From the IMG/VR virus record IMGVR_UViG_3300022939_001737, positions 1-64,000 of that record: a stretch of DNA of 64,000 bases; one strand, 5' to 3'. The notes under the pieces were generated by a model that did no database searches, was not told the DNA's origin, and saw only the letters and a list, made by a program, of their open reading frames with translations. This document shows positions 575 to 9,769 of this stretch, one piece after another. Both the position numbers and the translations under genes were made by a program. Origin of the DNA: a virus. Numbering within the stretch: position 1 is the stretch's first letter; the number at the start of each line of letters is the position of its first letter.

Positions 575-1020
575 ACTGGTTCTCCTTGTGTATTATTTAT
601 CGCAGGATATTCAAAATTTTGACACAGTTCATTTCGATCCACAAAGTGTGCTCCGTTGCGTATGTGAAAGCGTTCTGCCATTTCAGTTAGAGGTGATAGT
701 GTTACCCAACGGCTCACACTAGGTGTACGTTCACTAATAGCACGTTGAGCGCCAAATATGATGTCTCTACCTGCACCTCGATCATAACTCCAAACAGTGT
801 AGAACACACATACATCTTCACCTACACAATCTAGATCCTGTTCGTTCTGTGGTACTCTGTCACACAGTGCTGTACACACTACACTTCGAACAGTACCGTC
901 TGTGCCTTCTAATATCCACACAGTTCTTCCGTTGCGCACCCGTTGTTCAAAAGGTATATGTGGGCGCACAGGATCATCGTCTATCAAATATTGTTCGTTT
1001 GCTTTAATCGTTCTCAACAC
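571..1020 (-). CDS. hypothetical protein, possible degenerate GNAT fold
   Basis: FYTVWSYDRGAGR and TEMAERFHIRNGA resemble GNAT motifs A and B. Overlaps the end of the DnaE-like gene. Confidence 0.45.
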   Translation of the reverse strand: MLRTIKANEQYLIDDDPVRPHIPFEQRVRNGRTVWILEGTDGTVRSVVCTALCDRVPQNEQDLDCVGEDVCVFYTVWSYDRGAGRDIIFGAQRAISERTPSVSRWVTLSPLTEMAERFHIRNGAHFVDRNELCQNFEYPAINNTQGEPV

Positions 1021-2650
1021 GTTTGTACCATTCTCCCAGTGTATAAAGTTTTTGATCTGTACACTGTATGTAGTCTGAATTGTTTGAATGGCGTATCGAA
1101 CCTGAACCTACAACTACATCTCCGTCACGATATGCAAACGGACGTTGTATTGTTACGTCTATGTATTCACCGTAGTCGGTGCCCAATGTAAGGAATGTTA
1201 CCCAACGATTGCCACGACCACGGAATACTCTACCATTGGCAATAACACCTGCAAAGTCCACACGTTCAAGGAAGTTTGATCTTACTCCGCAGCCGGGAAT
1301 AAATCCCTGTTGCCACCATCCTGGTTTGGTGTCTATTCCTTTGCGATGCGCTTCGCATTGATATACCCACGGTTTGTAGGAGCCTTGACAGTGTCGGAGA
1401 TTTGCTCTCCAGAATTCTTCTGGTTTGTGTGCTTTGCAGTAGGCCAAGGCCCATATGAGCCGTCCAAGATTAACTGCGTGAGCTCTGCATAAACCAAAGC
1501 CGCTGAGTTCTTGCAGGGCTGCCATAGCTTCTGCTTTGCGTGGGTTGTTGCCCAGCCTTTCAACAAATTCAAGTATCTTTTCATCGTTCTTTTTAGCAAA
1601 TGCTCTCCTATACATATCAGCTTCATACATATCAACGCCGATAATGTTTGATATAATATCAATAGCATCGTCTTCGAATACTATCGAGTCTTGTACTGCT
1701 TCTTGTGACCAGTCTTGAAATACTGCGGCCTTTTGTCTGCCGCTCATAGCAACTGGTCTTATCATTGCTGTTGCAAACACACAGTCATATACTGACGTAG
1801 GTTGTATAGCTCTAAATAATCTACGCATAGCAGGGCTTTCTCCTTGTGTTACGCCTAGTACATCGCCTCTAGCTAGTAAGGCTGCTGTACGGTCGTCGTA
1901 TGCAGGATAATCCGCCAATGCAGTGTCAGGATCTATCTCTAGTAGTTGTGATAGTCCACGGTTTGCAAGTATGTCTACCTTGAGGTGTTCAAGGTCTTCT
2001 ACTTCGTGTTTGTCAAGTAGTATTTGGTTGTCTTGTGATATTAGTGATTTAGGTAATTGCCTAGTGAACATTACGATGCCTCCACAGTGTTTTGATATTG
2101 CTCGCTTCTTGCCTATGAGCTTGCGTTCTATACGCTTCGCTTCTGTAGGATCAACTCCTACTGATTCATATGTAAAGTTGCGTGGTAAATTACCTGTGGC
2201 TCCGAGTCGCTTTGCAGCTTCTCGGCGGGCTGACTTCTCCTTATAGGTCACGTAGTTGCTTAACCTTGCCGTTTTGCCTGGCCACTTTTTGAAAATGCGT
2301 TCCATTACTTCTGTTTGACGCCAATGTTCAAAGTCTATATCAACATCGGGCAGGTCGTCCCTTAAAGGATTCATAAACCGTGCCACAGGTATGTTCCACT
2401 CAATTGGGTCTACATCTGTAATACCCAACAAGTAGCACACAAGACTTGAACCCGCCGAACCTCTAGTCATATGAGTAAGGTCTTGGGTTAGGTCAATGAT
2501 GTCACAAATTTGAAGGAAGTAATCAGTGAAACGCTGGTTCAGGATGAGCTCAAATTCTTCTGCCAGACGATTTTGATATTCGGGTCCGGGTGGGACAGGC
2601 CTAATAAATCTATCTAATAGCCTTTGTATGTTTTCTAAATCTGTTGCCAT
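1004..2650 (-). CDS. dnaE: DNA polymerase III alpha-like (C-family) protein lacking the PHP domain
   Basis: Motifs RGSAGSSLVCYLLGIT, PDVDIDF, SKHCGG, LKVDIL, GVTQGES, MIRP, GFGLCRAHA, and a C-terminal OB-like FLTLGTDYG. Confidence 0.9.
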   Translation of the reverse strand: MATDLENIQRLLDRFIRPVPPGPEYQNRLAEEFELILNQRFTDYFLQICDIIDLTQDLTHMTRGSAGSSLVCYLLGITDVDPIEWNIPVARFMNPLRDDLPDVDIDFEHWRQTEVMERIFKKWPGKTARLSNYVTYKEKSARREAAKRLGATGNLPRNFTYESVGVDPTEAKRIERKLIGKKRAISKHCGGIVMFTRQLPKSLISQDNQILLDKHEVEDLEHLKVDILANRGLSQLLEIDPDTALADYPAYDDRTAALLARGDVLGVTQGESPAMRRLFRAIQPTSVYDCVFATAMIRPVAMSGRQKAAVFQDWSQEAVQDSIVFEDDAIDIISNIIGVDMYEADMYRRAFAKKNDEKILEFVERLGNNPRKAEAMAALQELSGFGLCRAHAVNLGRLIWALAYCKAHKPEEFWRANLRHCQGSYKPWVYQCEAHRKGIDTKPGWWQQGFIPGCGVRSNFLERVDFAGVIANGRVFRGRGNRWVTFLTLGTDYGEYIDVTIQRPFAYRDGDVVVGSGSIRHSNNSDYIQCTDQKLYTLGEWYKRVEND

Positions 2651-2719: not shown

Positions 2720-4147
2720 TTATTCGTCTCCTAAATTATTGAGAAATTGTCTTAGTTTTGTTGAATCTGTTTGGGCACGTATTTTACCTACAGTATCACC
2801 CTCAGTTGGATCTTCTCGTTGTTGTCCTTCTTCTATAGGTGCGCCACTACTGCGTTTGATTTGATCAAACACGGTTGACTTACGTTTGTTAAACTCTTGA
2901 TACTCTTCATCCTCTCCTAAGTCTCTAATACGCAAACTGTCTACATCAAACTCTAAGTCGATCTTTTGTCCAACGCCACTTGAACTTCTAGTCTTCATTA
3001 GCTGTATTTGATAGCGTCCACGTTCACGCATTGCTCTACTTGTAAAGATACCGATTAAGTTATCTGCTGTATTGATCTTTGAAATACCACCTGAGATATG
3101 CGAATGATCAAACTCAATCTCTTCAACCGAACTCCTGTTCAACTGCGATGCTGTTACAAACAAACAGTTCAGTTCCATAGCCAAGTTACGTAGTTCTTCT
3201 GACACATACTTGTCTTTAACAAACAAGTTCTCTGCACTAATCTTAGCTGCTATCGGATGCATCAAGTCCAAATAGTCTACAAGCAATACGTCTACCTTCT
3301 TGCCTGTTTTGATCTCATATTCTTTCAAATAACTTCTAATGTCATTTGCGTTCTTGCCAGTGGGCATATACTTGACCTGGAATGCACCTGACTTTTTGCC
3401 AATCATCTTTACTTTCATTTCAACATCGTCAATGCTCTTAAAAACATCACGACTTGGAATATCTGTAGTCATTGAATCAAGCCGCATACTAACTAGATTC
3501 TCTGAAAGCTCAAATGTCAAGTAAATTACGTTCATACCTGCTAGTGCCCAGTTCACGCCCAAGTTAGCCAAGAACAAACTCTTACCCGAACCTGAACCAC
3601 CTGCAAAGATATTAAGCTCACCTCTGTTAAAGCCACCAAACAGTTTCTTATCTAGTGCCGGCCAACCTGTGCTTACTTGTCCGTTTTTGTCTTTGATTGC
3701 TTCTAGTCTACTTCTAGGATCTGCAAAGTAGTCTGTACCTAGATCTTTTTGCAAACCAATCTGTACTGCTTTCTTAACCAAATCCTCAACCGGACCATAC
3801 TCCCCTTTTTCCAACAGATCTGCGCTAGTAAGGATGGCCGCTTCCAAAGCCTTGTGTCTGGAGAATGTTTCAAACTCCTGAAGTAGCCAGTCATAATGAT
3901 TCTCCTGTAGTTGCCCTGGGTCTTTTAAGTTGCTGTCTGTAGCAGCATTAATCATTTCAAATGTAGGAAGTGCATTATGTTCTGTTACATAATCATTTAA
4001 AAATTTTGCAGGTGCTTGCAACTTTCGGTCAAACGTGTCTGGATTAAACACAGCCTGACAGCGAACAAACGACTCTGCATCTGTTAACATCATTTCAAGA
4101 TATACTTTTTGTATATCATAACCGTAATCTGTATTTTGTCTTGTCAT
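2720..4147 (-). CDS. replicative DnaB-family helicase (T4 gp41-like)
   Basis: Walker A GGSGSGKS, Walker B LLVDYLD, TASQLNR, MKTRSS. Probable start MTRQ at 4147 (ORF track starts 4183). Confidence 0.92.
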   Translation of the reverse strand: MTRQNTDYGYDIQKVYLEMMLTDAESFVRCQAVFNPDTFDRKLQAPAKFLNDYVTEHNALPTFEMINAATDSNLKDPGQLQENHYDWLLQEFETFSRHKALEAAILTSADLLEKGEYGPVEDLVKKAVQIGLQKDLGTDYFADPRSRLEAIKDKNGQVSTGWPALDKKLFGGFNRGELNIFAGGSGSGKSLFLANLGVNWALAGMNVIYLTFELSENLVSMRLDSMTTDIPSRDVFKSIDDVEMKVKMIGKKSGAFQVKYMPTGKNANDIRSYLKEYEIKTGKKVDVLLVDYLDLMHPIAAKISAENLFVKDKYVSEELRNLAMELNCLFVTASQLNRSSVEEIEFDHSHISGGISKINTADNLIGIFTSRAMRERGRYQIQLMKTRSSSGVGQKIDLEFDVDSLRIRDLGEDEEYQEFNKRKSTVFDQIKRSSGAPIEEGQQREDPTEGDTVGKIRAQTDSTKLRQFLNNLGDE

Positions 4148-4153
4148 ATTGTA

Positions 4154-4183
4154 ATTATACTTTCTGATACCATATATTGTCAA
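4154..4183 (-). promoter_or_regulatory. sigma70-type promoter for the helicase
   Basis: TTGACA (4183-4178), 18 nt, TATAAT (4159-4154), 6 nt, ATG. Confidence 0.65.
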
Positions 4184-5123
4184 GTGTTGTTTTTTGTTTT
4201 GTCTTTGCTAATACTGCACCGATACACGATCCCGGATCACCAGGATTAGTAGGAACCCATACATTATTCCAACGTGGTTTAATTTTTTCAACTGCCTGTC
4301 TATTAAGTGCGCCGCCACCTGCTAATGCTATGTTAGAGCTACCTGTTTCTTTGCGAGCCCATTCACTTAGGTTCATTAAACAGTACTCAAATATTGCTTG
4401 GGTGGTTGCTGCTATATCGTATATATCCTGCTGGCTACACAACCCAGGACGCCACCAATTGCATCCCCTGTGTAAATTTTCGTGTAGGGTAACTTTAGGG
4501 TCTACACCTAAGCCTTGCATTGATATAATCTCATCCCACATTACTTTGAACAGTCTTTCTTTGCTACCTTTTTCTGCATACTGTGCCACTAGATATTCGT
4601 CACGTTGTGCTTGTAACCCCATACGTTGTGTCATAGCACTGTAGAAAAGTCCTAGGCTATGTGGATACCCTTGTGAATGTATCTTCTTAAGTCGATTGTT
4701 CTTGCCGTGCCATATGGTCAGGGTCTCAAATTCTCCAATACTGTCTAAGCATATAACAGCACAATCGTCATAGGGCTGAGTGTAATAAGCATAAGCAGCG
4801 TGTGAAAGATGGTGTTGGGTATACAAAATGGGACAACATATATTATATTGCTTTAGATAACTACGTATATTATTTTCTTTAAGTAACCAACCCTGGCCTG
4901 CATACAGCTGACGTAGTGTTTTTAATAGGGGACGTTCGTACCATATAACTTGCTCAGGTACTCCGTATTTGTCTAGGGCATATGCAATCTGTTCTTTATT
5001 ATGATTAGGGTCATTAGCAATGCCTGAGAAATCTTTTGATAGACTTGCCCATAGCAGTTTGTCACCTTTAAAAATTCCTAGGCTAGCATCGTGACTGTTA
5101 CCAACCATTCCCCAAATAATCAT
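4155..5123 (-). CDS. carbamoyltransferase N-terminal (Kae1-like) domain only
   Basis: SHDAS, HHLSHA, DSIGE, SLGLFYS, LAGGGALN, PGDPGSCIGA. Ends before the C-terminal YrdC-like domain. Confidence 0.85.
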   Translation of the reverse strand: MIIWGMVGNSHDASLGIFKGDKLLWASLSKDFSGIANDPNHNKEQIAYALDKYGVPEQVIWYERPLLKTLRQLYAGQGWLLKENNIRSYLKQYNICCPILYTQHHLSHAAYAYYTQPYDDCAVICLDSIGEFETLTIWHGKNNRLKKIHSQGYPHSLGLFYSAMTQRMGLQAQRDEYLVAQYAEKGSKERLFKVMWDEIISMQGLGVDPKVTLHENLHRGCNWWRPGLCSQQDIYDIAATTQAIFEYCLMNLSEWARKETGSSNIALAGGGALNRQAVEKIKPRWNNVWVPTNPGDPGSCIGAVLAKTKQKTTLDNIWYQKV

Positions 5124-5326: not shown

Positions 5327-5460
5327 TTATATATAAATGGATCTCTTTTCTTGAGTTCCTTAATTTTACGTCTATAAGCAATTTCTTCTTTTATCTTATA
5401 GTACGGCCAAGCAATCCAACTCCATATCTTTTTTAGGATCTTTTTTATTTTGTGAACCAT
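5323..5460 (-). CDS. small basic protein (45 aa), absent from the ORF track
   Basis: Manual translation MVHKIKKILKKIWSWIAWPYYKIKEEIAYRRKIKELKKRDPFIYK. Fills the gap and overlaps both neighbours. Confidence 0.65.
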   Translation of the reverse strand: MVHKIKKILKKIWSWIAWPYYKIKEEIAYRRKIKELKKRDPFIYK

Positions 5461-6446
5461 TTTTTTGCTCTCAGTCTTATTTTCAAAGGCGACTCTTCTG
5501 ATTGTGTAGCAATACTATGTAACGTATACAATCTACCATAACGTTGTACTGCATCTCCTATATCGTTAATATCATCTGCCCATTCAGGCATTGAAACAGA
5601 ATATCCTAGTTCAATAGCTTGCTCTACTAATTTGCTGCCAGCTTTGTCTCTATCAGGTACAACAATTATTTCCTTCTGTAGCTTATTTAGCAGCAGTGAT
5701 TGTTGGTCAGATATTTCACTGCCTCCTAGCGCACATCCTTCTACGTGTAGTGCATCTATTTGTCCTTCGCAAACAATAGCAAATACTTTGTTATGTCGTT
5801 GTTCGTCTAGGTTAAACACATAGCCAGGTTGCACTTCTGTTAAGTATTTAGGCTTCTTATCTGGTGTGATAGCACGAGCAGTCCAGCCTACTATTCTACC
5901 TTCATAATAGAAAGGAATAATAAGCCTATCACGATAACCTAAACTAGGTGACCAATGATAGTCAATGTCGTCTATACGTAGATTGCGTTCTAGCATATAC
6001 TGAAACACATTTACCATACGCTCTGGTATAGTACCTGGCTCTGCCCATTGATAGTCTGCAAGTCTAACAGCATCTTCTGGCAACGGTACAGAGTCGAACG
6101 TGGGCAGTTGAGCAATACGTTCTAGTGCTTCAACGCCCTCGTTCTCTCGCATCACATCAAGTGCCACCTTGTTGATTATATCGTCAGGCGCTCCCATCCA
6201 TTGATAGAGCCTTCGCATCTTGTGTGAAAAGTTACGCCCAGGTTGCCACGAGGCTTTGAAACCACAGTTAAAACAATGATAACTTACACCTCCGTCAGGA
6301 TTGCTTATTAGTCCTCCTCGGCCTCTATTATCAGCTGAGTGGCCGTTGTGATGGCAACAGGGCGCATTGAATGATAGCCAGCCGCTAGGAGTTTGTTTCC
6401 TCTTAGCAGGCAGGTATGTCAGAACTGATTCGGCTACTACACTCAT
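5445..6446 (-). CDS. DNA primase (T4 gp61/DnaG-like)
   Basis: Zn-binding CC...HCFNC, IIPFY..GRIVGWTAR, PKYL, TOPRIM CEGQIDA and PDRD. Confidence 0.9.
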   Translation of the reverse strand: MSVVAESVLTYLPAKRKQTPSGWLSFNAPCCHHNGHSADNRGRGGLISNPDGGVSYHCFNCGFKASWQPGRNFSHKMRRLYQWMGAPDDIINKVALDVMRENEGVEALERIAQLPTFDSVPLPEDAVRLADYQWAEPGTIPERMVNVFQYMLERNLRIDDIDYHWSPSLGYRDRLIIPFYYEGRIVGWTARAITPDKKPKYLTEVQPGYVFNLDEQRHNKVFAIVCEGQIDALHVEGCALGGSEISDQQSLLLNKLQKEIIVVPDRDKAGSKLVEQAIELGYSVSMPEWADDINDIGDAVQRYGRLYTLHSIATQSEESPLKIRLRAKKWFTK

Positions 6447-6452
6447 AGTATT

Positions 6453-6481
6453 ATTATAGCGTAGTTGCTAATTTATGTCAA
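6453..6481 (-). promoter_or_regulatory. consensus sigma70 promoter for the primase
   Basis: TTGACA (6481-6476), 17 nt, TATAAT (6458-6453), 6 nt, ATG. Confidence 0.8.
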
Positions 6482-7267
6482 TCAATTTCTTACTAAAATT
6501 TTTGTAATTTTATCAGCAGGATTTGAATTTGCTTTGAATCGTAAATGACTAAACACACCGTTGAAATTTACTGGTAACGGTTCTGTTTCTGTACCGCTGA
6601 ATGTCATTGTTGCAATGTCTGCCCAGTTAGTGCTTTCGGTTACTTGATTATCTAGTGTTGCTTGTACTACTATATTACCTACATAAGAACTAGTATACGC
6701 CGCTGCGGTATGTAGTGCTTCATTACCGTTTATACCAGGTTGAGCATCAATTGTTTCTGATATCCACTGATCTGTACCTACTTCTGTTTGTTCAAATTGT
6801 GTAACTTGATACGTTGCAAGAGGTCCAGGAAATGTTTTTGCATTTACATAAATTGTTGCATCGTTGTCAAAATTACTATGATTGTATGTCAATACTTTAT
6901 TGCTATCTGCATCAACCAAATAAATGTTATAGGAAAGAAATTGTTGCTTTATATTAAGTAATTCATTTTCTGTTATAGTAACACTGAACTTGCCTTTGAT
7001 TTCGCTCGAACCGTCGTCTTGCACAACTCCGTCCTTTTCGATTACTAACACTTGATTTTCATCGTATGCAACAAACTTGGGAGTATAATTTGTCATTGGT
7101 ATTGGACGCTGATCTGCGTTATATAATCTAAAATCTAAGACATTATCTATGCCTTTAAAAACTTGTAATTGTCTACTGTACACTGGTCTATACTCCACTA
7201 TGAATCCGCTTTCATTTGAACGAAGCTTGGTTAAATTTGAGACTAAATATCTAGGTGTTAGTTGCAT
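6482..7267 (-). CDS. hypothetical protein, probably late/virion
   Basis: Beta-rich ORF. Probable start MQLTPR at 7267, 4 nt after TAAATA (7272-7277). Confidence 0.6.
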   Translation of the reverse strand: MQLTPRYLVSNLTKLRSNESGFIVEYRPVYSRQLQVFKGIDNVLDFRLYNADQRPIPMTNYTPKFVAYDENQVLVIEKDGVVQDDGSSEIKGKFSVTITENELLNIKQQFLSYNIYLVDADSNKVLTYNHSNFDNDATIYVNAKTFPGPLATYQVTQFEQTEVGTDQWISETIDAQPGINGNEALHTAAAYTSSYVGNIVVQATLDNQVTESTNWADIATMTFSGTETEPLPVNFNGVFSHLRFKANSNPADKITKILVRN

Positions 7268-7287
7268 AATGTATTTATCGGAATAAA

Positions 7288-7656
7288 ATGTTAACAAAAG
7301 ATATACAAGAAAATTTTCCGTTCTTAAGTGTGGTTACTTATGGGGGTAACGAATATATCGGTATCATCATTAATCAGGATCAAACAGTAACATCAATGTA
7401 TGTTTACACAGATTTAAAATCAAAAAAAGAACAAAGTCAATTTTTAGAATTAGGAGATATATGGTGGTGGGAGTCAAATAGACTCATTCCTATTAATATA
7501 TTTCTAAGAAAAGAAATGGACCAATTTAAATATTCTATAGTTACAATGAACTCTAAAGATGTTAAGATAACAATTGGACCTGTTGTTAATCTCAATAATT
7601 TAGCTGTAAAGCGTGTAAAGCGCAGAAGTGTACAGCTAGTAAGAAAACCTAAGTAG
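7288..7656 (+). CDS. hypothetical protein
   Basis: 122-aa ORF occupying an otherwise empty gap. Contains WWWESNR.IPIN. Confidence 0.7.
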   Translation: MLTKDIQENFPFLSVVTYGGNEYIGIIINQDQTVTSMYVYTDLKSKKEQSQFLELGDIWWWESNRLIPINIFLRKEMDQFKYSIVTMNSKDVKITIGPVVNLNNLAVKRVKRRSVQLVRKPK

Positions 7657-8209
7657 TAAATTCTTCACACAATAAATTCATATGTATTACTACAGCCATT
7701 GCGTAACTTATTGCGTGTGCTTTCTTAAAGTAATAGCTACCGTCTTCGGGTTTTTTCCAAACTTCTGTTAGTATCGTTTGCCAAGTTTCGTTGACAAGAT
7801 GCCTCTTCGCAGGACGTATCATCGCTAGGACTGCTGCTAGTTGTTCTACTGATTTGGGTTTCGTTTGCTGTAGAATTGTACTGTGTTCGCCTACGTGAAA
7901 TAAGTTGTTGCTGAATTCTGGCTCTGTTAATAAATCCCATAATGGTTCCTTATCCATAAGTTGTTGTAGATGTTCGTTACTCTTAACGTTTTTATAAATG
8001 CTTACATTTAAAAAATCTAATTTAAAATAGCCTCTATCTTCTGCTGTTTTATGTTCGATTGTTGATAAGTTGTCAATAGGATTATGTGGAATTTCTGTTA
8101 CATAAATTCCTGTATTGTGTTTCTTATCTGTATCTAATTTTGCCACACGGTGTTGTATCTTGTCTAGTATAACACTGCGATCTGCAAAGTCGATATCAAT
8201 ATCAGGCAA
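7649..8209 (-). CDS. miniature DnaE-like protein (palm/fingers core, 186 aa)
   Basis: Begins MPDIDIDF. Contains HNTGIYV, GYFKLDFL, LAAVLAMIRP and YYFKKAHAISYA, which are DnaE motifs in collinear order. Confidence 0.85.
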   Translation of the reverse strand: MPDIDIDFADRSVILDKIQHRVAKLDTDKKHNTGIYVTEIPHNPIDNLSTIEHKTAEDRGYFKLDFLNVSIYKNVKSNEHLQQLMDKEPLWDLLTEPEFSNNLFHVGEHSTILQQTKPKSVEQLAAVLAMIRPAKRHLVNETWQTILTEVWKKPEDGSYYFKKAHAISYAMAVVIHMNLLCEEFTT

Positions 8210-8699
8210 GATGCTTCTCCAATTTACGTGCTTTTTTTGTAGCCATATCCCATTTTATTTTTGATACACGATCTTTAAACGTTATGCCGTGTAAATGATC
8301 CCATTCGTGTAAGTAACATTTTGCACTATACCCTTCAATTTTTACAACCTGTTCTTCTAAATTCTCATTGTACCATTTTGCAAGTATTTCTTTTGGACGT
8401 TTTACTTTGACAAAAATATTAGGAAAGCTTAGACATCCTTCAACATCTAAAATAGTTTCTGATGTATACTGTAGAACAGTTGGATTAATACAAATAGTAC
8501 TATTCTCTAAGCTGTCGCCCATAACAAATACTTGTGCATCTAAACCAACTTGATTTGCGCTCAGGCCAATACCATTACTAGATAACATTAAGTCTACCAT
8601 TTCTTTTTTTAGTTCAGCAGGGTCAAATGTAGGGTTTTCTAAATCAACTTCTGCAACTTGCTTGTCTAAAAACGGATCTGGATAGTAAACTAAATTCAT
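8202..8699 (-). CDS. def: peptide deformylase
   Basis: All three PDF motifs: GIGLSANQVG, EGCLS, HEWDHL. Confidence 0.95.
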   Translation of the reverse strand: MNLVYYPDPFLDKQVAEVDLENPTFDPAELKKEMVDLMLSSNGIGLSANQVGLDAQVFVMGDSLENSTICINPTVLQYTSETILDVEGCLSFPNIFVKVKRPKEILAKWYNENLEEQVVKIEGYSAKCYLHEWDHLHGITFKDRVSKIKWDMATKKARKLEKHLA

Positions 8700-9109
8700 A
8701 ACTTGCCTTCTTCTCTCAACTGTGCTCTTATCTGTGTTGCACTAATATTGTGTATCTCTTCACCCAAGTCGTGTTGTGTAAATGTATAACCTACGCCGCG
8801 ACCATAACTAATGTCAACTATGTTTGGTACAAACATTATAACATATTCTTCGCCTTCTGTAAAGCCTTGATTTGCTAATCCTTGTACAATATTCTGTGTT
8901 ACTGTTTCCACATCAAACGGGTTATCATCTTGCTTTACTGTGCGGCCGCCGCCAGCATCTTGACCTACAATACCTCCGACATCTCGAATCATAATACATA
9001 CTTGACCTGTTTCTAATAGTGCTTTTTTAAATAGTGCTGTGTGACCATCGTGCCACGGTTGCCATCTGCCCAGCATTTGCGCAGTAGGCTTTTTCCAATC
9101 AAAACTCAT
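8696..9109 (-). CDS. HIGH-superfamily nucleotidyltransferase (cytidylyltransferase-like)
   Basis: GRWQPWHDGH (HxGH), NPF, ISATQIR. Confidence 0.8.
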   Translation of the reverse strand: MSFDWKKPTAQMLGRWQPWHDGHTALFKKALLETGQVCIMIRDVGGIVGQDAGGGRTVKQDDNPFDVETVTQNIVQGLANQGFTEGEEYVIMFVPNIVDISYGRGVGYTFTQHDLGEEIHNISATQIRAQLREEGKL

Positions 9110-9320
9110 CTTTTACTCCGTAACGAATGTGTTTATACCATATACGCTCGTGTACGTAATACATTATAAACTTTATTATTAAATCTATAACAAATACAGC
9201 GCCTACTGCTTTAGGTGGTAATCCAAATAAAAAAGCTATTGCTGCTGTTGTCAAACTTGCTATCAAACGCCAGGTTATTGCTTTTGCTAAATGACGTTTC
9301 TTGCTTACACGATCTTCCAT
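9099..9320 (-). CDS. DUF2061-like small membrane protein
   Basis: RHLAKAITWR...YYVHERIW signature and two hydrophobic helices. Confidence 0.75.
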   Translation of the reverse strand: MEDRVSKKRHLAKAITWRLIASLTTAAIAFLFGLPPKAVGAVFVIDLIIKFIMYYVHERIWYKHIRYGVKDEF

Positions 9321-9769
9321 TATACTGCTATTATTTCAGTCTCTAAAATATTGATCTGTTGTATTGCATTTGCTAATCTTTCCACGTCTCCGGTTTCTTC
9401 CTTTAGATGTGTTATAATTCTAAAATCAAAAGTTTTCGGTTCTTCAAACATTTTGTTTGTATCTTCAAATCTTCCTTCAGAAATTGTATCTACCCATACA
9501 ACAACGTCTGCTTCAAAAATATGTCTAGTAAGATCAGTAGGACATACAAAATCACAAATAACAGTACGCCCGCATCCTTTTTCGTAATCTGCTAGGTTAC
9601 GCATTCTACGAGCTTGACGTATTCTAGCTTCTTCACTAAATTCCCAGTCATTTGCCATTTTACGCACTTCATCTGCATTATACCACGCACAGTCATTTAA
9701 GTGTTTTTGCAACCTTTCGGCAAGCCAAGTTTTGCCTGCTCCGGGCAGACCCATAATTAATATTTTCAT
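9320..9769 (-). CDS. adenylylsulfate kinase-like P-loop kinase
   Basis: GLPGAGKT, NADEVR, FSEEARIRQARR, DFVCP, FEEP (CysC-like, shortened). Confidence 0.75.
   Translation of the reverse strand: MKILIMGLPGAGKTWLAERLQKHLNDCAWYNADEVRKMANDWEFSEEARIRQARRMRNLADYEKGCGRTVICDFVCPTDLTRHIFEADVVVWVDTISEGRFEDTNKMFEEPKTFDFRIITHLKEETGDVERLANAIQQINILETEIIAV

Follow-up and report, generated by a model that had tools for sequence, protein, structure and literature searches.

How does a gene of 186 codons come to hold the catalytic motifs of DnaE, the bacterial DNA polymerase III (Pol III) alpha protein of more than 1100 residues, and is its product a working part of a polymerase, an enzyme in its own right or a relic? 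The question arises at positions 7649..8209 (minus strand) of a stretch of viral DNA of 64,000 nucleotides (the window), positions 1 to 64,000 of IMG/VR record IMGVR_UViG_3300022939_001737, itself an 86-kb linear fragment that is about 25% complete. The encoded protein, mini-DnaE, is very probably one of the two subunits that make up the minimal Pol III alpha known from group 2.2 jumbo phages, namely the C-terminal one: the Mg2+- and template-binding half of an enzyme whose other half is a separate polypeptide. Such an enzyme is already in print: in 2021, Iyer, Anantharaman, Krishnan, Burroughs and Aravind (Viruses 13:63; PMC7824862) described group 2.2 jumbo phages that, besides a family B polymerase, encode a minimal Pol III alpha as two genes lying far apart.

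Conservation and fold of the 186-residue protein

The gene starts with TTG, and its product begins M/L-PDIDIDF and carries the motifs HNTG (residues 31–34), GYFKLDFL (60–67), MIRP (130–133) and YYFKKAHAISYA (159–170), all located where an initial annotation of the window, which had not given the strand, had placed them. The order of these DnaE motifs lies far beyond chance. The start site is identical (MPDIDIDF) in 71 of 71 distinct homologous coding sequences from IMG/VR and the window, 69 of which use ATG and two TTG. The absence of intein motifs, also claimed at the outset, was borne out: Pfam finds no Hint domain in the open reading frame (ORF), whose first residue already aligns with E. 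coli DnaE 399.

Mini-DnaE belongs to a large family, matching phrog_11778 ('DNA polymerase') at E 5.9e-63, with residues 3–183 aligned to profile positions 8–194 of 197. A tblastn search of 50,697 phage records returned 96 matches, every one of them in a jumbo phage and covering at least 80% of the query, with identities of 53.8% in PA5oct-like Pseudomonas phages, 50.3% in Sinorhizobium phage Phosso and Agrobacterium phage Atu_ph07, and about 39% in the group of 121Q, PBECO4 and RaK2-like phages. IMG/VR holds at least 545 loci with relatives, and among metagenome protein clusters 7999 of 8000 scored candidates fell below E 1e-3, giving at least 7999; the 120 best cluster matches listed measure 185–207 residues. 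Salt-marsh metatranscriptome libraries from three studies, together with two 2025 runs of unrecorded type, contain contigs identical or nearly identical to positions 6400–9200 of the window, which places the phage in salt-marsh water or sediment; in three of the salt-marsh runs, contigs are identical to parts of the mini gene itself (for example 7351–8020 in X1).

We then compared an alignment of 79 homologues, reaching down to about 30% identity, with E. coli DnaE (2hnh). The resulting profile matched at E 2e-5 in three collinear stretches: profile positions 3–20 with E. coli 399–418 (MPDFDVDF), 54–139 with 539–641 (KFDFL ... FRPG) and 151–181 with 740–771 (FNKSHSAAYAL). In this alignment, D3, D5, K63, D65, R132 and P133 of mini-DnaE pair with D401, D403, K553, D555, R639 and P640. 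D401, D403 and D555 are the residues that we take to be the catalytic triad of the E. coli enzyme, in agreement with the earlier claim that all three catalytic aspartates are retained. D3, D5, D7, K63, D65, R132 and P133 are invariant in the 79 homologues, and H31, G34, Y36, K162, H165 and A170 nearly so.

Structure prediction agreed with this alignment. An AlphaFold (AF2) model of mini-DnaE alone reached a predicted local distance difference test (pLDDT) score of 96.5 and a predicted template modelling (pTM) score of 0.88. The top 16 Foldseek matches of this model were all Pol III alpha (M. tuberculosis DnaE1, 5lew, at E 3.7e-4), and VIA-align superposed 184 of the 186 residues on Pol III alpha with Z 9.9 and a root-mean-square deviation of 3.5; its 13 top chains were all C-family polymerases, the first unrelated chain following at Z 3.2. 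The superposed region spans residues 461–838 in Thermus, 399–781 in E. coli and 419–808 in M. tuberculosis.

On this evidence, mini-DnaE combines the second half of the palm with reduced fingers and is equivalent to E. coli DnaE 399–781 minus about 200 residues. It shares palm and fingers with the bacterial enzymes (E. coli 2hnh, Thermus 3e0d, M. tuberculosis 5lew), its Asp, Lys, R-P and F-x-K-S-H...Y-A residues being collinear with E. coli 399–781, and keeps the metal-binding DxD strand, the K-x-D strand and the R-P and F-K-K-x-H...Y-A finger motifs. By E. coli domain boundaries, the removed residues are presumably the whole thumb and much of the fingers, including the distal part; mini-DnaE also has no PHP, clamp-binding or OB domain, and it further differs from these enzymes in length, in falling short of the Pfam thresholds and in having the GS-motif part of its palm on another polypeptide.

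The gene is under strong purifying selection. The median ratio of nonsynonymous to synonymous substitution rates (dN/dS) against the window sequence is 0.12 (60 finite values in 70 pairs), and in 83 closer pairs the median is 0.137 with a maximum of 0.30; the 71 distinct sequences agree without exception in 64 of the 186 columns.

A separately encoded N-terminal half

If mini-DnaE is one half of a polymerase, relatives should encode the other. We searched the complete cultured genomes PAC2, 121Q and Phosso with the full-length phage DnaE profile phrog_405, which returned no full-size DnaE in any of them; in all three it found the mini gene and one more small ORF, of 169, 180 and 177 residues, matching profile positions 360–436. 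These ORFs end in ...GVGRGSSVASY...EFLK/N, thus carrying the GRGS motif, and belong to phrog_11127 (E 7.8e-46 and 6.1e-37). A 185-residue N half is also present in two of five large related IMG/VR contigs (G001 and G003).

The two halves meet closely on the map of the bacterial enzyme. Positions 72–184 of the N-half profile align with E. coli DnaE 271–392 (E 6.6e-4), so that the N half ends about six residues short of the start of mini-DnaE at 399, leaving no room for intein residues on either side. Their genes are far apart: the distance is about 31 kb in 121Q and about 43 kb in PAC2, rises to 122 kb in G001, with the N half downstream, and exceeds 220 kb in Phosso, whose record is circular. 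They nevertheless occur together: 93 phage records match the N half and 96 the C half, with nearly identical genus counts, and in metagenomes the N half, too, is represented by at least 7999 protein clusters.

Nature also offers a joined version. An exhaustive HMMER search of 1.84 billion representatives gave 421 relatives at E <=1e-3, and among the 150 of these listed we found one natural single-chain form, P0353 (375 residues, from ENA), in which an N half (31% identical, E 9e-23) is followed by a 10-residue linker and a C half. No relatives of it were found in IMG/VR, and two that emerged from a metagenome scan are ordinary full-length DnaE genes (933 and 1093 residues) and not minimal fusions. 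The only match of a search for longer fused proteins, P0391 (335 residues, carrying Helicase_C), is probably a run-on with a neighbouring gene.

Next, we modelled a heterodimer of the G001 N half, a non-cognate partner, with the mini-DnaE of the window, in three runs and with three controls. The interaction prediction score from aligned errors (ipSAE) was 0.91 in the three runs, compared to 0.13 for the best of the controls; for reference, 58 of 80 solved complexes and 2 of 110 mismatched pairs attain the mark used for this score. Contacts agreed between runs to at least 96%, with a partner pLDDT of at least 91, and place N-half residues 146–159 (the VWGVGRGSS strand and loop) against residues 2–9 of mini-DnaE. 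Both predictions to which the initial annotation had looked, of the protein alone and with a partner, thus gave confident models. Modelled alone, the N half reached a pLDDT of 59.4 (40 alignment rows, all at least 71% alike, in a different program), compared to 88 in the complex, and its fold matched E. coli DnaE 275–401 weakly (Z 4.7); this is a hint that the N half may fold on binding.

The separate GRGS-bearing N half in relatives, the abutting ends, the co-occurrence (96 and 93 records) and the heterodimer model together support the proposal that mini-DnaE is one subunit of an intein-free split polymerase; of the two readings first offered, a minimal C-family nucleotidyltransferase or such a subunit, it is the second that holds. 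In the enzyme suggested by these data, a second protein of about 185 residues, equivalent to E. coli 271–392 and contributing the GRGS triphosphate-binding motif, would be encoded far from the mini gene, as seen in the relatives and as expected for this phage. According to the model, its strand IVWGVG would pair with the DIDIDF strand of mini-DnaE and so rebuild one Pol-beta-like palm, the two chains associating without a covalent link.

This arrangement can be set against other reduced or divided C-family polymerases. In cyanobacteria, DnaE-n and DnaE-c are likewise encoded by distant genes, and are joined covalently by split-intein trans-splicing into a full-sized enzyme. Mini-DnaE and its N half share with that system a C-family polymerase made from two distant genes, but lack intein residues on either side of the break, and the halves must stay non-covalent. 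The PHP-less DnaE-like polymerases of medium-sized phages (phrog_405, and a 548-residue protein of the window described below) are also phage-borne reduced C-family cores, but are single chains with thumb and full fingers.

Directly downstream of the N-half gene, all five genomes examined carry a gene for a protein of 113–153 residues (L100:1822-2205, L099:1744-2127, L010:1741-2082, L011:1801-2145 and L009:1761-2222). It belongs to phrog_14844 in the two tested (L100 and L010), has the shared motif N-A-R-G-D...G-x-G-G, and may be a further conserved neighbour or a component.

Competing explanations and likely roles

A number of observations weigh against a split polymerase in this phage. For mini-DnaE itself, Pfam reports no PF07733 and finds PF17657 (DNA_pol3_finger) below threshold (13.5 bits, cut-off 22), and a single-sequence PDB search gave no DnaE, its sole match being 2qcv at E 0.46. 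The 86-kb record contains no separate N half, the sole match being the 548-residue protein at E 0.003, and zero matches to the family B polymerase domain PF00136; nor was an N half found in the assembled part of the other three of the five large related contigs. The heterodimer model borrows its N half from G001, a different contig with a mini protein that shares 73% identity with that of the window, and in solved DnaE structures such an interface forms within a single chain, so the high score may reflect that likeness and not binding. The fused protein is a singleton on one 2415-bp contig, a single observation. With the thumb and much of the fingers lost, template polymerisation could have been lost too, and full-text literature searches found no biochemical study or report of polymerase activity for the split mini-Pol III family. 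Finally, contigs from RNA libraries do not prove transcription.

Some of these gaps may follow from the extent of the record. The mini gene lies at 7.6–8.2 kb on the minus strand, and its downstream direction leaves the record after 7.6 kb; because the record ends there, we infer the partner in this phage from its relatives. That the partner would be encoded outside the window, as the initial annotation proposed, fits both its absence from the 86-kb record and its place 122 kb downstream in G001. The GRGS-bearing ORF expected elsewhere in the genome was found in PAC2, 121Q, Phosso, G001 and G003 and not in the record itself; for the family B polymerase, equally missing from the record, PF00136 matched in two of four related contigs searched alongside, G001 and G003 (frames of 892–899 residues), in the former about 27 kb beyond the N half.

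The most serious competitor, though distinctly less probable than a polymerase, is that the halves assemble into some other Pol-beta-fold nucleotidyltransferase, acting in terminal transfer, nucleotide or base modification or signal-nucleotide synthesis, or into a non-catalytic part of the replisome. In its favour, the thumb and about half of the fingers are gone (the 186 residues span E. coli 399–781), there is no clamp-binding, OB or PHP part, these phages already have a family B polymerase, and the literature searches gave no report of activity. The finger motifs R-P and K...H...Y-A of DnaE, however, face the template and the incoming nucleotide, and these motifs, together with the metal-binding Asp and the Lys, are invariant or nearly so; moreover, the gene sits in a primase-helicase module in all clades examined. 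Invariance of D3, D5 and D65 would be unexpected in a non-catalytic protein.

A further possibility, raised in the initial annotation, is that a 548-residue paralogue supplies the RGS part to mini-DnaE. This protein, encoded at 1004..2650 on the minus strand, is an unsplit, PHP-less DnaE-like core (PF07733, E 3.9e-43; PF17657, E 8.2e-15) that covers phrog_405 positions 362–845 of 1190 and matches M. tuberculosis DnaE1 5lew at E 9.8e-34. It is 24% identical to mini-DnaE over 130 residues (E 2e-4), and its N-terminal region weakly resembles the N half (E 0.003). It has 306 IMG/VR relatives, at 75–91% identity, and a median dN/dS of 0.083 (47 finite values in 65 pairs). The gene sits just downstream of that for a helicase, and on 78 of 80 related loci a helicase match lies upstream; the last 100 or so residues of the protein lie past the finger match.

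In favour of such a partnership, the two genes lie about 5 kb apart in one replication module, and in the stretches retrieved for 80 related loci, 19 contain both. Also, no contig bearing the 548-residue gene has a separate N half, though none extends in the direction and over the distance at which G001 has its own: five such contigs, 19–44% complete, match phrog_11127 through the 548-residue protein alone and gave no match to a family B polymerase, negatives that carry no weight given the reach of these contigs, and none of 80 fetched IMG/VR loci with an N half, the largest of 119 kb, is long enough to hold both that gene and the 548-residue one.

Against this stands the complete and conserved RGSAGSS, PDVDIDF and KVDIL set of the 548-residue protein itself, which leaves no gap to fill. 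Homologues of it are missing from all five large relatives that have the mini gene and from all three cultured phages (PAC2, 121Q and Phosso), which have a dedicated N half instead. In six contigs that also carry the 548-residue gene, the dN/dS of the mini gene is 0.08–0.23 (10 finite values in 15 pairs), the same range as elsewhere. The proposed paralogue donor is thus not supported and very unlikely; the 548-residue core is a lineage-specific extra gene of one sublineage and not the partner of mini-DnaE.

It is equally hard to credit that mini-DnaE is a stand-alone minimal enzyme, even though it folds confidently alone in the model (pLDDT 96.5) and holds all three acidic residues. To our knowledge, every Pol-beta-like nucleotidyltransferase binds its triphosphate via a G-S strand and helix; this element is missing from mini-DnaE and sits in the co-occurring N half, and the DIDIDF strand of mini-DnaE lies exposed at an edge, where the model pairs it with the N half. 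A decaying remnant of full-length dnaE, as might be suspected from a length about one sixth of that of bacterial DnaE and from the TTG start, is excluded because dN/dS is about 0.12–0.14, and is further contradicted by the Asp residues invariant in 79 homologues, the 64 invariant columns, the fixed start in 71 of 71 coding sequences and the wealth of relatives of similar length (at least 545 in IMG/VR and 7999 protein clusters).

Returning to the split polymerase, the heterodimer would act as an accessory template-dependent DNA polymerase beside the family B replicase and, lacking a thumb, a clamp-binding region, an OB domain and PHP/exonuclease, would be distributive. As its role we tentatively favour short primer extension before hand-off to the main family B polymerase, by analogy with Bacillus subtilis, in which DnaE extends primers before hand-off to PolC. 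Gap filling in recombination or repair is a somewhat weaker candidate, and the remaining probability falls to other or unknown nucleotidyl transfer. It is a rather unlikely, if conceivable, extension of this idea that the sublineage runs three polymerases, namely a family B replicase, the 548-residue DnaE core and a two-piece mini Pol III alpha that folds on binding, whose halves, encoded more than 100 kb apart, would assemble in a time-gated manner and extend primase products much as in the DnaE-PolC system of Firmicutes.

Iyer et al. (PMC7824862) suggest that the split Pol III cooperates with the family B enzyme in one-strand synthesis or repair, put it forward as a model of the ancestral enzyme and state that the phages which have it are devoid of further Pol III domains. 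Passages from three other papers deal with other Pol III subunits, of phage PaBG (PMC7412058), list annotations only (PMC11895373) or do not mention the mini-DnaE gene (PMC7318152); a term search of a 2026 review (PMC13282480) found no mention of polymerase III, family B or DNA polymerase.

Mini-DnaE agrees with the system of Iyer et al. (phrog_11778 and phrog_11127) in its C half, distant half binding the nucleoside triphosphate, lack of an intein and position among the replication genes of T4-like jumbo phages with a family B polymerase, the distant half and the family B gene being known here from relatives. It differs in coming from an uncultured marine or salt-marsh phage, at best 54% identical to cultured members, and in a genome that also has an unsplit DnaE core. 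Since the family and the split are already published, mini-DnaE opens no new question; what is modestly new is that a marine or salt-marsh sublineage carries the unsplit 548-residue core too, an exception to the statement on further Pol III domains that Iyer et al. do not report. The window adds three points: how abundant the family is in marine and salt-marsh metagenomes, that it is under strong purifying selection and that an unsplit DnaE core can accompany it. No smaller C-family polymerase core is known than the split minimal Pol III alpha, which, if active, would define the minimal parts for C-family catalysis.

Gene neighbourhood and the source record

The mini gene lies within a few genes of primase and helicase in every clade examined, and the gene order common to these clades is the mini gene, a small opposite-strand ORF, a virion protein, a primase and a DnaB-like helicase. 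Immediately upstream in the window is a gene for a true peptide deformylase (def, 8202..8699, minus strand; PF01327, E 1.5e-40), and the TTG of mini-DnaE (8209-8207) overlaps the def TGA stop (8204-8202) by 8 nucleotides, as the initial annotation had it. The overlap is identical in relative L047, compared to a 165-nucleotide gap in L024. In PAC2, the mini gene has a C2H2 protein directly upstream, and in both PAC2 and 121Q the RecA/UvsX-like, UvsY and UvsW genes lie a few kb or less away.

At its 3' end, mini-DnaE is overlapped by 8 nucleotides by a convergent ORF of 122 residues (7288..7656, plus strand; phrog_11637, E 3.8e-34), for which an atlas look-up gave no usable match. An opposite-strand ORF of 117–132 residues occupies the matching site in PAC2, 121Q, Phosso, L024 and L047, and this kept adjacency could reflect a functional link.

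Further downstream, a DnaG-like primase (5445..6446, minus strand; Toprim_2, E 5.5e-6; phrog_47, E 1.7e-42) lies two genes from mini-DnaE here as in 121Q and PAC2, with an extra ORF of 549 residues intervening in Phosso, and is followed by a DnaB-like replicative helicase (2720..4183, minus strand; DnaB_C, E 2e-20; phrog_19, E 3.9e-70). Between primase and helicase, positions 4155-5123 (minus strand) encode a protein of 322 residues that matches the N-terminal domain only of carbamoyltransferases (PF02543, E 1.8e-30; phrog_1601 positions 1–328 of 528); ORFs of similar size lie at the same site in L024 (321 residues) and L047 (339 residues) and not in PAC2, 121Q or Phosso.

On the other side of def, two minus-strand ORFs at 8696-9109 and 9320-9769, separated by an ORF of 73 residues (9099-9320), match the two halves of phrog_10255 ('kinase', 230 positions). 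An APS-kinase-like ORF of 149 residues corresponds to positions 2–108 and a cytidylyltransferase-like ORF of 137 residues to positions 123–228; this pattern could reflect either a second split gene or a PHROG derived from a fused form. Lastly, the related contigs G000 (the record of the window), G004, G006 and G008 all end about 3–14 kb downstream of the helicase or the 548-residue gene, which might reflect either the end of the genome or a hypervariable region at which assembly fails.

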